Assembly: GCA_045105115.1 (NCBI GenBank)
Contig: JBGCDE010000056.1
Span: 13,323-77,322, forward strand
From: Pseudomonadales bacterium
GTDB lineage: Bacteria; Pseudomonadota; Gammaproteobacteria; Pseudomonadales; JAUIET01
Direction of reading: 5' to 3'
DNA length: 64,000 bases
In this document: positions 4,370 through 61,292 of the stretch, one piece after another
Numbering within the stretch: the stretch's first letter is position 1
How the letters are laid out: each line of letters starts with the position of its first letter
The notes under the pieces: model-generated
Told to the model about the DNA's origin: nothing
What the model saw: only the letters and a program-made list of their open reading frames with translations
The model's database searches: none
Translations under genes and position numbers: made by a program

Positions 4370-4496
4370 GTCCGGCGCTGGACTGCCTATTAGCTAGCTG
4401 GACACGCCGTGAATCCATCCATGGAGTCTCATTTTCGACATCCATGTCTCAAACGGTCCAGCTAGCTAATAGGCAGCCCAGCACCTCAGTGCCAAT
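4370..4496 (-). repeat. Core-52 foldback element, copy A (subtype 1)
   Basis: Arms 4374-4403 and 4456-4485 pair over 30 bp; the two non-Watson-Crick positions are both G:U on the minus strand. The 52-nt core is 4404-4455 (acgccgtgaatccatccatggagtctcattttcgacatccatgtctcaaacg). It is flanked by gtccggc (4370-4376) and cctcagtgccaat (4484-4496). Confidence 0.85.
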
Positions 4497-4520: not shown

Positions 4521-4665
4521 GTTTCAGTATCGATTACCCCCTTTGCGAAGGTAAAAAACGCAGGCCGAGAGAACAAAAAAGACTTTCGCAGAAAGGCTTT
4601 TTTGAGAAAGAGGGAACCGCGGAGCGGCCCAGTTGCGCAGCAAAGGGGGTAATCGATACTGAAAC
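4521..4665. repeat. Long perfect inverted repeat (25/25 bp arms) enclosing a 95-nt insert; possible distant relative of the core-52 family
   Basis: 4521-4545 gtttcagtatcgattaccccctttg is the exact reverse complement of 4641-4665. The insert contains a terminator-like hairpin and gagaaagagggaacc, which resembles gaaaagagggacc in cores D and E. Confidence 0.8.
4575..4603 (+). terminator. Rho-independent terminator-like hairpin, symmetric (A-tract / stem / T-tract), inside the 4521-4665 palindrome
   Basis: aaaaaa-gactttc-gca-gaaaggc-tttttt. It lies downstream of the hslVU-DUF971 unit and upstream of ubiE. Confidence 0.45.
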
Positions 4666-6126: not shown

Positions 6127-7782
6127 ATGGCCTTGATACAAAACTGCAAACGATCGGCACGCATACTCAGAGTAGCTGCGCGCTATCGTCTCGATGCACT
6201 GATTGATAAATCGCGCCTGCCATGGGCTCTGCGTGCATTACTTTCACCATTAGCGATATTACCAAACAACAAAGCGGCTCGAGGTGAGCGAATTCGCCTG
6301 GCACTGCAAGATCTTGGCCCTGTGTTTATCAAGCTAGGGCAAATGCTGTCAACACGGCCGGATCTGTTACCCGATGATATCGCCGCGTCATTAAACCAAC
6401 TGCAAGACCAGGTAGAGCCGTTTGCGAGTGACCAGGCAATCAAAGTAGTTGAGCAAGCGTTTGGTCAATCTGTAAATGATCTGTTCACACGATTTGACAC
6501 AACACCACTGGCCTCGGCATCAATTGCACAAGTACACGCCGCGGAGCTGACCTTACCCGGTCAGGATAAGCCACTTGATGTGGTGGTGAAAATTGTGCGG
6601 CCAGGTATCGAGCGGCTTATAGAGCAAGACACCGACCTTATGTTTTCCCTGGCGCGTATGGTCAAGCGTTACGCGCCCGACGGTGAGCGCTTGAAGCCCA
6701 TCGAAGTCGTTAGTGATTATCGCGATATCATTTATGACGAATTGAATATGCAGCTCGAGGCCGCTAATACCAGCCAGTTGCGGCGCAACTTCCTCAATTC
6801 AGACTTGCTGTACGTACCGGAAGTGTATTGGGATTTCGTTCGCAGTAATGTATTGGTGATGGAGCGCATATACGGCACACCCATATGTAATATTGATGAG
6901 TTGCATGCGGCAAACGTTAATATGAAAGAATTGGCTGAGCGTGGTGTTGAAATATTTTTCTCTCAAGTCTTCCGCGACAGTTTCTTCCACGCCGATATGC
7001 ACCCTGGCAATATTTTCGTCAACGTTAGCAACCCGGACAAGCCGCAATACATAGGTATCGATTGCGCGATAATAGGCAGTCTCGACGACGATGACCTTTA
7101 TTATCTTGCGCGCAATTTGCTAGCCATCTTTCAGCGCGACTACCGCACTGTGGCCGAAATGCACGTTGAAAGTGGCTGGGTGCCTGAGCATATTCGACCA
7201 GGCGATTTCGAATCAGCGATACGCAGTGTCTGCGAGCCAATTTTTGAAAAGCCATTGGCAGAAATATCCTTTGGTCAAATCTTGTTGTATTTGTTTACCG
7301 TAGCGCGCCGCTTCGAAATGAGTGTGCAACCAAATCTGGTACTGTTGGAAAAAACACTATTAGCCGTGGAGGGCCTTGGTCGCCAGCTCTACCCACAACT
7401 AGACCTGTGGCAAACGGCGCAACCTTTTCTGGAAGACTGGATGGCCAAGCGCTATGCGCCTGCTCAGGTTTTACAGCGCATGCAAAAGCAGGCCCCCACT
7501 TTGTTACAACACCTGCCGCAGCTGCCCGAACTATTGATCGACAATCTGAAATCATCGGCAGCGCTGCGAGAATCTGCACAGCAACAGCAGCGCCAACTAC
7601 AGATTCTCGAAGAACAAGGCCGGCGGCGGGAACGTCGTCAGAAGCTTGCTGCAGGCATATTGCTTGTGGCCGGCGCCCTGCTATTCTTTGGTCCGCAAGC
7701 GTCATTGTTTGAGGGTTACGATTTTCGCACCTCTGCTGCTATTGTTGGTGGCTTGGGAGTTACCTGGTTATTACTGGGTTAG
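6127..7782 (+). CDS. ubiB: Ubiquinone biosynthesis regulatory kinase-like protein UbiB (ABC1/ADCK family)
   Basis: LGPVFIKLGQMLSTRPDLLP..ASASIAQVHAA..VVVKIVRPG..FFHADMHPGNIF, plus C-terminal TM helices. The start at ATG 6127 (MALIQNCKR) was chosen over 6049. Confidence 0.9.
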   Translation: MALIQNCKRSARILRVAARYRLDALIDKSRLPWALRALLSPLAILPNNKAARGERIRLALQDLGPVFIKLGQMLSTRPDLLPDDIAASLNQLQDQVEPFASDQAIKVVEQAFGQSVNDLFTRFDTTPLASASIAQVHAAELTLPGQDKPLDVVVKIVRPGIERLIEQDTDLMFSLARMVKRYAPDGERLKPIEVVSDYRDIIYDELNMQLEAANTSQLRRNFLNSDLLYVPEVYWDFVRSNVLVMERIYGTPICNIDELHAANVNMKELAERGVEIFFSQVFRDSFFHADMHPGNIFVNVSNPDKPQYIGIDCAIIGSLDDDDLYYLARNLLAIFQRDYRTVAEMHVESGWVPEHIRPGDFESAIRSVCEPIFEKPLAEISFGQILLYLFTVARRFEMSVQPNLVLLEKTLLAVEGLGRQLYPQLDLWQTAQPFLEDWMAKRYAPAQVLQRMQKQAPTLLQHLPQLPELLIDNLKSSAALRESAQQQQRQLQILEEQGRRRERRQKLAAGILLVAGALLFFGPQASLFEGYDFRTSAAIVGGLGVTWLLLG

Positions 7783-20359: not shown

Positions 20360-20484
20360 GTCCGGCTTTAAATCGTGTATTGGCTAGCGAGACACGCCGT
20401 AAACCCATCCATGGGGGCTTGTGTTCGAGGTCCCTCTCTCACACAGTCTCGCTAACCAATACACGATTTAAATCCTCTGTGCTA
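20360..20484 (-). repeat. Core-52 foldback element, copy B (subtype 2)
   Basis: Arms 20367-20393 and 20446-20472 pair at 27 positions with one exception (C/A on plus = G:U on minus). Core 20394-20445 is acgccgtaaacccatccatgggggcttgtgttcgaggtccctctctcacaca. The gtccggc flank at 20360-20366 is identical to that of copy A. Confidence 0.85.
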
Positions 20485-20536
20485 TATCTCACCATCAGTT
20501 CGCCCAAATCTTTACGCGCTTTCAAAGCAAGTGCAT

Positions 20537-20665
20537 ATTGGCACTGAGGCTTCGGATTGAGTGTTTGACTGGCGGGACTGTTTGAGACAGGATGTCGAAA
20601 ATCAAGCCCCCATGGATGGGTCCACGGCGTGTCCCGACAGTCAAACACTCAAGTCGGAGCCGGTC
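20537..20665 (+). repeat. Core-52 foldback element, copy C (subtype 1)
   Basis: Arms 20548-20578 and 20631-20661 form a 31-bp stem with 2 G:U and 2 purine-purine mismatches. Core 20579-20630 is tgtttgagacaggatgtcgaaaatcaagcccccatggatgggtccacggcgt. The 5' flank attggcactgagg (20537-20549) is identical to the copy A flank. Confidence 0.85.
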
Positions 20666-27395: not shown

Positions 27396-27604
27396 GAATA
27401 TCTCCTTGTTGAGTGTCTACATAGCTTTAACGCAGCATATCCAAATAAGGGGTTAAGGGCCACGAAAAAACTCATTGCTCTTGGTCGGCCGCGTCTTGAT
27501 TTTCTGATCGAGAACGGTATTGCGTGCAGTACCTCAGTGCCACACCCAACTCTGTAAAAATTTGTAAAGTAGAAAAACTGAAATTTTAATGTGGCAGGTT
27601 TTAA

Positions 27605-27718
27605 GGCAGAGGTCGTTACCCCATGTGCCAGACTGTTGAAAAGAGGGACCTTTTCAACAAGCCCCCATGGATGGGTTTACGGCGTGTCTGGCACATGGGG
27701 TAACGGCCTCTGCCGAAC
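27605..27718 (+). repeat. Core-52 foldback element, copy D (subtype 2)
   Basis: Arms 27605-27633 and 27686-27714 form a 29-bp stem with a single T:G wobble at 27613/27706. Core 27634-27685 is tgttgaaaagagggaccttttcaacaagcccccatggatgggtttacggcgt. Confidence 0.9.
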
Positions 27719-51377: not shown

Positions 51378-51511
51378 GTCACTCTATAACACGAAGCACA
51401 ACCCTGCGCTCCTAGGTCCAAATTGCGGGCGCAATCTGTCGAAGAAGTTCTCATTATGACCCGAGAACACACCACACATAAAAAAGGCCTCTTGCGAGAC
51501 CTTTTGTATGT

Positions 51512-51553
51512 GTGGCGCGCCCTGAGAGATTGATTCGATCGGCCTAAGGGCCG
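51512..51553 (-). pseudogene. Internally deleted tRNA-Arg remnant
   Basis: It keeps the tRNA 3' end (tggcgcgccctgagagatt) and a 5'-end-like ctaagggc, but the anticodon, D and most T arm sequences are missing. Confidence 0.6.
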
Positions 51554-51654
51554 CTCTCACCCCTGCGGGGCGTAGTCGCTGCGCTTCTACGTCCAAATTG
51601 CTGACGCAATCTGTCGAAGGAGTTCTCATCATGACCCGAGAACACACCACACAT

Positions 51655-51680
51655 AAAAAAGGCCTCTTGCGAGACCTTTT
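51655..51680 (-). terminator. Rho-independent terminator downstream of tRNA-Arg (duplicated at 51479-51504)
   Basis: On the minus strand: aaaa-ggtctc-gcaa-gaggcc-tttttt. Confidence 0.7.
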
Positions 51681-51687
51681 GTATGTG

Positions 51688-51764
51688 TGGCGCGCCCTGA
51701 GAGATTCGAACTCCCGACCACCTGGTTCGAAGCCAGGTACTCTATCCAGCTGAGCTAAGGGCGC
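51688..51764 (-). tRNA. tRNA-Arg (anticodon UCG), CCA encoded
   Basis: Minus strand GCGCCCT-TA-GCTC-AGCTGGATA-GAGT-A-CCTGG-CTTCGAA-CCAGG-TGGTC-GGGAG-TTCGAAT-CTCTC-AGGGCGC-G-CCA. All four stems pair. The anticodon loop is CT-TCG-AA. Confidence 0.92.
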
Positions 51765-51788
51765 TGTAAATCTATTCTATCTTGTTCA

Positions 51789-51847
51789 GCGCCCTGCTGG
51801 TTCGAAGCCAGGTACTCTCTCTTTACATTGAGCAGAGCTAAGGGCGC
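51789..51847 (-). pseudogene. tRNA-Arg-derived, T-arm-less tRNA-like remnant
   Basis: Minus strand GCGCCCT-TAGCTCTGCTCAATGTAAAGAGAGAGTA-CCTGG-CTTCGAA-CCAGC-AGGGCGC. The 7-bp acceptor stem and the anticodon arm (UCG) are intact, the D loop is replaced, and the variable and T arms are deleted. Confidence 0.6.
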
Positions 51848-51874
51848 TTTAAGGCCACGCACTATACACGATTT

Positions 51875-61174: not shown

Positions 61175-61292
61175 TTGAGGCTGAATTAAACGCGCGGCGC
61201 CCGGAACTGTTGAAAAGAGGGACCTTTTCAACAAGCCCCCATGGATGGGTTCACGGCGTGTTCCGGGCGTCGCGTGTTTAATTCAGCCGGCG
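61175..61292 (+). repeat. Core-52 foldback element, copy E (subtype 2)
   Basis: Arms 61179-61207 and 61260-61288 form a 29-bp stem whose two exceptions are both G:T wobbles on the plus strand. Core 61208-61259 differs from core D at one base. Confidence 0.9.

Follow-up and report, generated by a model that had tools for sequence, protein, structure and literature searches.

A dispersed, structured repeat of Gammaproteobacteria with a conserved two-hairpin core and a variable, covarying closing helix

Element E and related copies in the window

Element E lies between an acyl-CoA-dehydrogenase-like gene and a ygiQ-like gene in the window, the term used here for the whole 64-kb stretch of DNA that was analyzed. 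It is one of exactly five copies (A–E) of a repeat recognized in the window by the covariance model R1. All five are intergenic, and four of them are antisense to neighboring genes. The copies, the parts of E, and associated sequences are given below with their window coordinates and strand; L-numbers (L008, L054, L119, L126, and so on) are labels of loci fetched from other genomes.

4371-4488, minus strand: element A, covariance model match (R1, 109.3 bits); 4374-4485 by repeat finder/alignment
20361-20478, minus strand: element B (R1, 110.8 bits), left half of a divergent pair with C; 20364-20475 by repeat finder/alignment
20538-20549, plus strand: 5' flank motif TTGGCACTGAGG, which travels with the element (motif match); second occurrence at 4484-4495, minus strand
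20546-20663, plus strand: element C (R1, 89 bits), right half of the divergent pair with B; 20548-20661 by repeat finder/alignment
27500-27543, minus strand: decayed partner of D, consisting of the 5' flank motif GTGGCACTGAGG and then an arm-like stretch, with the core gone (motif match)
27601-27718, plus strand: element D (R1, 116 bits), core identical to that of E at 51/52 positions, arms unrelated to those of E; ortholog with a related arm at L126 6746-6863
27605-27633 and 27686-27714, plus strand: arms of D, 28 Watson-Crick pairs and one G·T
61175-61292, plus strand: element E, whole unit of 118 nt (R1, 110.6 bits; fold z = -9.3)
61179-61207, plus strand: 5' strand of helix P1 of E (5' arm, 29 nt), inverted repeat with 27 Watson-Crick pairs and two G·T
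61208-61259, plus strand: core of E, 52 nt, between the two 29-nt arms
61208-61233, plus strand: hairpin P2 of E, 10-bp stem with loop AGGGAC at 61218-61223; covariation in 9/10 P2 pairs (45 copies), same helix from RNAalifold
61235-61257, plus strand: hairpin P3 of E, GCC/GGC plus CCCA/UGGG with loop AUGGAU and a 5-nt bulge, UUCAC; C64-G75 replaced by U-A in 8/45 copies
61260-61288, plus strand: 3' strand of helix P1 of E (3' arm), inverted repeat pairing with 61179-61207

The GGA of the P3 loop of E occupies 61243-61245. B and C point away from each other, with 67 nt between their 5' ends. D formerly had a partner as well, of which the remnant at 27500-27543 persists on the minus strand; the matching place in L126 holds an intact second copy (6931-7048). 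A preliminary description of this DNA had drawn attention to D and E, reporting that their cores agree at 51 of 52 positions and their arms at 12 of 29 while the two arms of each copy pair almost perfectly, and both its coordinates and its counts were confirmed. The single difference between the cores is TTTAC versus TTCAC. By our own count of the 5' arms, 12 identical positions in 29 is the level found between unrelated copies, and transition-aware alignment scores the D and E arms no higher than shuffled arms (p = 0.6).

Other repeats are present in the window. A long hairpin unrelated to the family (4521-4665) lies at a distance of 35 nt from element A; its 26-nt arms (GTTTCAGTATCGATTACCCCCTTTGC) are perfectly complementary and enclose a 93-nt loop, and it had no Rfam match at E ≤ 1. 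A tRNA-Arg(TCG) gene (51688-51764, minus strand) lies amid direct repeats (51404-51852). The longest spans 128 nt (51404-51531 and 51579-51706), with 95% identity between its two copies, and shorter ones overlap the tRNA gene; all look like partial duplications of the tRNA region.

Structure and covariation

Each unit of ~118 nt contains a 26-31 bp helix, P1, which is formed by the arms and closes a 52-nt core carrying the hairpins P2 and P3. Folded as a single strand, E has a minimum free energy of -77 kcal/mol, compared with -42 ± 3.7 kcal/mol for shuffled sequences (z = -9.3). The resulting three-way junction is supported by an ungapped alignment of 45 copies, in which 37 of 43 pairs covary and 94.7% of cells are paired, versus 59% in shuffles and ~40% with slid partners. 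Covariation extends over 27 pairs of the ~29-bp P1 and nine of the 10 pairs of P2, the loop of which reads A[U/G]GGA[U/C]. P3 is built from GCC/GGC and CCCA/UGGG around the loop AUGGAU, and its C64-G75 pair is exchanged for U-A in eight of the 45 copies. RNAalifold independently returned the identical junction structure. Both hairpin loops take the form C-ANGGAN-G, and they are unchanged in subfamilies with other P3 stems (UACA/UGUA and CACA/UGUG). The arms vary in sequence, while their length is fixed at 26-31 bp and their ends are conserved as GG...GAC.

A small open reading frame that could encode MDGFTAC (ATG GAT GGR TTY ACG GCG TGT) was considered and rejected. Its seemingly synonymous variation is explained by the covariation of C64-G75 with U-A in P3, and it has neither a ribosome-binding site nor a conserved continuation.

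The arms of 11 Microbulbifer loci (L010, L015, L016, L040, L056, L061, L066, L070, L072, L080, and L098) share a conserved outer segment, GGnnCTGATRCCGG, and a conserved inner segment, TTGCGAGAC. They also share an internal A·G mismatch, and most of their variation is confined to the central 8-10 bp of the arm.

Strand specificity, orientation, and transcription signals

Mismatches in the arms differ sharply in kind. When all non-Watson-Crick pairs were scored alike in 88 distinct copies among the matches listed, A·C was found eight times and G·T 93 times (p = 2e-19), an excess indicating that one specific strand folds. Judged from these mismatches, structural selection acts on the strand reading ...ACYGU...CCAUGGAUGG...ACGGCGUGU... 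In single-stranded DNA, too, no mismatch is milder than a G·T wobble, and an asymmetry between strands is therefore not enough to prove that the folded molecule is RNA.

Orientation relative to neighboring genes, assigned by a simple ORF heuristic for 61 copies among the matches listed, is random (14 sense, 18 antisense, 22 convergent, and 7 divergent). These copies lie outside genes and favor gene 3' ends, with 22 of the 61 located between convergent genes and 7 between divergent genes. Orientation is likewise random with respect to GC skew (57:57 among the matches listed), and no replication-strand bias was seen.

Crude consensus scans at B/C and E detected no sigma-70-like sites and no terminator-like site at the 3' end of the element; the sole hit inside E, at 61254-61272, straddles the junction between the core and the 3' arm. 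The AT-rich hexamer GATATT 8 nt upstream of P1 is inconsistent among copies. A sigma-54 promoter, with the TGGCAC flank motif as its -24 box, was considered and rejected: A falls one base short of the GG-to-GC spacing, and C lacks a -12 box. No GacA/UvrY box (TGTAAG-N6-CTTACA) was seen by eye in the spacers of the pairs. With random orientation and no promoter or terminator, a role as RNA needs a source of transcription, and none was found.

Short flank motifs accompany the arms, which begin with GG, and these motifs are lineage-specific (GGCACTGA, GGAAACTGTC, or GCGAA). In the lineage of the window, (G)ATATTGGCAC(T/A)GA precedes P1 and GGAC follows it. The 5' flank motif of Stenotrophomonas is GGAAACTGTC, and Microbulbifer has GCGAA and GCCAC. 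No direct repeats flanking the units were found.

Distribution of the repeat family

At least 118 loci were matched by a 23-nt core pattern with one genome per species, and the fetched loci contain at least 171 R1 matches from many genera, although E-values of the R1 model are rough. Gathering copies by a core pattern skews the sample toward conserved cores, the statements made here refer to the matches listed, and many of the loci are MAG contigs. Carriers among the matches listed include Stenotrophomonas, Xanthomonas, Luteimonas, Microbulbifer, Cellvibrio, Haliea/Halioglobus, Marinobacter, Rheinheimera, Aeromonadaceae, Oceanisphaera, Zobellella, Halopseudomonas, and Sodalis, together with MAGs of Methylococcales and Ectothiorhodospiraceae.

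Searches of Rfam 15 gave no match at the gathering score, and at E ≤ 10 returned only spurious microRNA hairpin models; the CsrB, CsrC, and RsmX/Y/Z models in this release showed no similarity. No description of the repeat was found in the searchable literature by topic or by sequence words. The family is thus apparently undescribed and is widespread in Gammaproteobacteria.

A few labels among the matches are at odds with the sequences that carry them. L042 (titled Bacillus subtilis SK7B5) and L089 (titled Nocardiopsis yanglingensis A18) hold Stenotrophomonas-type copies, the flank of L042 is ~83% identical to Stenotrophomonas loci, and both are probably contaminant or mis-assigned contigs in those assemblies. 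L039, L044, L090, and L109, labeled as Klebsiella or Enterobacteriaceae MAG, may be mis-binned likewise.

Inheritance of arms at orthologous sites

The window derives from a MAG of Pseudomonadales (Cellvibrionales-like), and four related genomes were fetched by way of the proteins flanking the copies. Neutral divergence among them is high. Their identity to the window at four-fold sites is 0.41-0.57, compared with 0.67 between the two closest relatives, and transitions are about as frequent as transversions at these sites. The preliminary description had named, as evidence that would speak against its reading, orthologous loci that carry the same arms with gradual divergence, and this is largely what was found.

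At the E site, the arms of L128 and L130 are identical to the window arm at 25 of 29 positions and to each other at all 29. Alignment of the L119 arm to that of E gives 18 identities, nine transitions, no transversions, and two indels; every change has its counterpart in the opposite arm, and shuffled arms align less well (p = 0.0005-0.005). An independent insertion in L119 was favored at first on the basis of ungapped arm identity of 38-45%, and was overturned by L128 and L130 together with the transition-aware alignment. The flanks next to the arms also differ between L119 and the window. L122 and L123 have a 29-nt spacer and no element at this site. In L128 a partner copy lies next to E, and L130 retains just the 5' arm of that partner. 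Comparison of L119 (11209-11326) with L128 (2722-2840) reveals a lineage-specific burst of nine compensated transitions and two compensated indels, with the arm unchanged between L128 and L130.

The D site gives a similar picture of inheritance with compensated change. In L126 the arm is 21/29 identical, the outer seven and inner seven base pairs are unchanged, and the core is 50/52 identical. All eight central differences are compensated (five transitions and three transversions), so that double changes outnumber half changes by eight to one, and four of the changes form an adjacent run. Decay is also evident at this site: the remnant in L127 comprises the 3' arm and 7 nt of core, and all that L124 retains is a piece of the partner's core. 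Orthologous arms in Stenotrophomonas, Xanthomonas, and Microbulbifer are 0.80-0.96 identical, compared with 0.64-0.83 at third codon positions. The core is 96-100% identical at orthologous sites in related genomes.

Relatedness can also be traced among paralogs. The A, B, and C arms share 16-19 identities and differ mostly by transitions (p ≤ 0.03), in agreement with the common ancestry that had been suggested for them, and among A, B, C, L126_C, and L081 every arm shows significant relatedness to the others. The arms of C and L126_C show 22 identities, eight transitions, and no transversions. Pooled over four independent comparisons, arm changes comprise 27 transitions and 4 transversions, versus 174:194 at four-fold sites (Fisher p = 1.7e-5); a transition-aware alignment favors transitions by design, which was controlled with shuffles, and the comparisons are few and partly non-independent.

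Within one genome, two different copies are interrupted by a stretch of ~36 nt, AAGCTGGCCCCGCGAGCGCAGCGAGTGCTTTGGGTC, and in both the break falls at GGGTTTA^CGGCGT in the core. The loci concerned are L126 (6985-7026) and L008 (3729-3882), and also L108 (1-140) and L120 (11210-11250); similar sequence is found in other loci. It could be a tiny nested insertion with a site preference or an optional extra hairpin.

Unequal constraint on core and arms

The contrast between core and arms is quite probably the product of unequal constraint combined with compensatory drift. The core, comprising its loops, junction, and 3' tail, is under strong purifying selection at the sequence level in all lineages sampled, while P1 is constrained solely in its length, in its first and last two to three pairs, and in its pairing. 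Substitutions in P1 are compensated and alter single base pairs in succession, for the most part through wobble intermediates (G:C - G:U - A:U), and indels are compensated too. By such compensated drift of P1, paralogs lose arm similarity while their cores remain near-identical. The preliminary description had held that ordinary divergence could not give this contrast; unequal constraint and compensatory change do give it. Inherited arms and a conserved core make D and E old paralogs rather than recent copies. The D core is 50/52 identical to a Microbulbifer copy (L054) and 51/52 identical to E, and being about as near to the one as to the other, it illustrates that core identity is no measure of age. 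Some observations fit this account less readily. Uneven rates (L128 and L130 are identical, yet L119 has accumulated nine transitions and two indels) speak against a simple clock for the arms, and the three transversions among the eight compensated changes at the D site fall outside what the wobble path explains.

In an improbable alternative, intrastrand template switching (quasipalindrome correction) is chiefly what keeps the arms complementary: a mutation in one arm would be either removed or copied into the other, and the arms would evolve at the neutral rate under no selection. Template switching is an established mechanism in bacteria. It would accommodate the near-complete compensation at the D site, with its transversions and its run of four changes, as well as the compensated indels in both arms of L119. 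Copying of this kind is, however, blind to mutation type and to strand, and it cannot account for the transition bias (27:4, versus ~1:1 at neutral sites) or for standing mismatches of eight A·C versus 93 G·T; in most lineages, moreover, the arms evolve more slowly than third codon positions. The earlier suggestion of rapidly mutating arms that are re-symmetrized by template switching therefore survives in part: the arms are usually slower than third codon positions, and the transition bias and G·T excess point to selection by way of wobble intermediates and not to blind copying, while template switching may contribute by keeping arms perfect where transversions and indels are compensated.

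The preliminary description had also offered a mobile core as an explanation, with a unit of 52-56 nt landing in existing palindromes or creating inverted target duplications. The differing arms of every copy, and the differences in both arms and adjoining flanks between L119 and the window at the same site, are what such a unit would leave behind. The fixed arm length and conserved ends, the inherited arms at orthologous sites, and the relatedness of paralogous arms are contrary to it, as are flank motifs that lie outside the arms and are inherited with the core as part of the unit. The one clean empty site, that of L122, has neither a bare palindrome nor a bare core, and the remnants consist of arm and core fragments (arm plus a piece of core in L127, an arm alone at 27500-27543 in the window) rather than bare palindromes. 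The mobile-core reading is largely refuted, and we consider it very improbable.

An equally remote explanation, likewise raised in the preliminary description, holds that the arms are acquired or templated; a constant scaffold would then display a 29-bp duplex of variable sequence, serving as a guide or as an RNase III substrate with target specificity. Constant length with variable sequence would suit this idea, as would the concentration of Microbulbifer variation in the central 8-10 bp. Database searches of the kind that had been recommended for the arms argue otherwise: element E has no match in 72,556 plasmids or 50,697 phages (E ≤ 1), 241 million metagenome records contain no instance of a 24-mer taken from the E arm, and the core is absent from viral contigs. 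Vertical inheritance of the arms, with change one base pair at a time, is likewise contrary to acquisition.

Divergent pairs and a possible role as single-stranded DNA

Copies often occur close together. Among the matches listed, 38 of 43 neighbors within 1 kb are divergent, three are convergent, and two are in tandem; in divergent pairs the 5' ends face each other across gaps of 8-860 nt. The partners of a pair belong to different subfamilies or subtypes, and their arms are 0.57 identical, compared with a background of 0.52 ± 0.09. Recent inverted duplication as the origin of the pairs was rejected, partner arms being no more alike than background. Between the B/C pair (20361-20663) and L126 (13957-14266), the P2/core subtypes are in swapped positions while the divergent layout is kept. 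The swap could reflect inversion of the pair or exchange between inverted cores; the arms of types 2 and 3 are all inter-related.

Pairing of this kind is among the features of a REP/BIME-like element acting as single-stranded DNA, in which a structure-specific enzyme, of the HUH/RAYT type or another, would recognize the fold on one DNA strand and bind the conserved core and the flank motifs. Needing only to pair, the stem would drift, and the GGA loops would be protein contacts in DNA or coincidental. The predominance of divergent pairs, each made of two subtypes, recalls BIMEs, in which Y and Z units alternate (PMC2817692). A location outside genes with a preference for gene 3' ends, random orientation with respect to both transcription and replication, a strand-specific fold that tolerates G·T, conserved 5' and 3' flank motifs, and a site that is empty in a relative (L122) are also in keeping with it. 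Other properties are difficult to reconcile with a REP. The core is conserved across many orders, whereas REPs are specific to species or genera; there is no GTAG or CGTC head; and the element is 3-4 times the size of a REP, with an asymmetric core. Pairing has been kept at orthologous sites over near-saturating neutral divergence, which implies continuing selection in the host beyond the moment of transposition. No partner enzyme was identified in the loci, which are windows of up to 21 kb around the copies. A REP-like role as single-stranded DNA is a serious rival to the RNA reading, although on balance we judge it unlikely.

A possible CsrA/RsmA-binding RNA

Two S-ANGGAN-S motifs are present in 110 of 141 distinct copies among the matches listed, with a modal spacing of 23 nt, and the GGA loops read CAUGGAUG, CAGGGAUG, and CAAGGAUG. 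Some P3 hairpins (GUACAGGGAUGU in L061) match in full the SELEX consensus RUACARGGAUGU. Both loops fit the hairpin bound by CsrA/RsmA (a C-[ANGGAN]-G hexaloop), which suggests a candidate RNA for clamping a CsrA dimer. A CsrA/RsmA dimer bridges two A(N)GGA sites that are 10-63 nt apart (PMC4066749). A homodimeric ligand is well matched by two identical loops borne on covarying stems, and if the ligand is itself very conserved, the conservation of the core across orders would be explained. The folded strand would in this case be RNA, and its two GGA hairpins, 23 nt apart, would hold a single CsrA/RsmA dimer between them, with the element working as a decoy or as a tag in cis; P1 may serve as a stabilizing or processing handle.

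The best overall explanation of element E, to which we assign a probability of roughly 0.7, is that it is one copy of a ~118-nt structured repeat family, with unequal constraint and compensatory drift joined to a presumed function as RNA. Its components differ in strength. The predicted function as a CsrA-binding RNA is a real possibility that falls somewhat short of probable. The fullest version, in which dispersed and vertically persistent hairpin RNAs throughout the Gammaproteobacteria would each clamp one CsrA/RsmA dimer and be arranged in BIME-like divergent pairs, is more doubtful still.

The puzzle of core and arms has an ordinary answer; the repeat in which it arises, structured and conserved across orders, is less so. 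If the RNA is made and CsrA is bound, the repeat would constitute a new and very widespread class of Csr/Rsm partner, including in lineages with poorly known antagonist RNAs. The copies would then form a Csr/Rsm sponge distributed over the genome or a set of cis tags, would include candidate RsmA antagonists in Xanthomonadales and Cellvibrionales, and would link the biology of repeat elements to global posttranscriptional control. If the element acts instead as single-stranded DNA, it would represent a REP-like system that is unusually large and unusually conserved. In both cases the family provides clean natural data for studying the evolution of long helices, with transition-only compensated changes and compensated indels.

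Comparison with known systems

The RNAs that sequester CsrA and its homologs (CsrB, CsrC, RsmX/Y/Z, and RsmU) share with the repeat GGA motifs in hairpin loops that fit the CsrA/RsmE consensus, a site spacing that suits one dimer, and an occurrence in Gammaproteobacteria that includes Xanthomonadales. They differ in that the repeat has only two sites per unit, a long closing helix, and many dispersed copies, and in that a decoy is an independent gene transcribed from its own promoter, in many cases accompanied by a GacA/UvrY box, and ending in an intrinsic terminator; none of these signals was recognized here. RsmU is an RsmA-sequestering RNA of Xanthomonadales (PMC7694677). The identity of the Xanthomonas copy with RsmU is ruled out by position, RsmU lying in the comEA 3' untranslated region and the copy between an AcrB-type pump gene and eda.

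Structured RNAs with a variable closing stem, such as riboswitches and ribozymes with their P1 helices, likewise combine a conserved core and a covarying helix that accumulates compensatory, transition-biased changes, and a variable, covarying stem that closes a conserved core is sufficient to produce the contrast between core and arms. The near-perfect helix of 26-31 bp is unusually long by comparison, and in place of single-copy genes or leaders there are dispersed repeats.

REP and BIME elements (palindromic units of E. coli and relatives) and REPINs resemble the repeat in being multi-copy, extragenic, and mostly near gene 3' ends, frequently between convergent genes, and in forming hairpins that tolerate G·T and are oriented independently of genes. 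REP/BIME clusters likewise contain two subtypes alternating in orientation and combine long vertical persistence with the decay of single units. A REP is an imperfect palindrome of 20-40 nt with a conserved stem, whereas the present unit is ~118 nt, with a variable stem and a conserved, asymmetric 52-nt core that carries two sub-hairpins. The GTAG or CGTC head next to the REP palindrome is absent here, where arms start with GG, and the present core is conserved across orders rather than within a species. In a REPIN, two near-identical inverted REPs pair into one hairpin; here each unit folds alone, and the partners of a pair do not base-pair with one another.

Integron attC sites share conservation of structure over variable sequence and a strand-specific fold. 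They have conserved boxes at the outer ends, a variable center, and an arrangement in cassette arrays of one orientation, whereas the present repeat has outer ends of GG...CC and is dispersed in both orientations, and it contains no R''/L'' or L'/R' boxes (GTTRRRY). MITEs have conserved terminal inverted repeats and a target-site duplication, in contrast to arms that vary by copy and are flanked by no direct repeats. In a CRISPR-like or guide element, the variable segment matches foreign or genomic DNA, unlike the variable segment here, for which the plasmid, phage, and metagenome searches gave no match.
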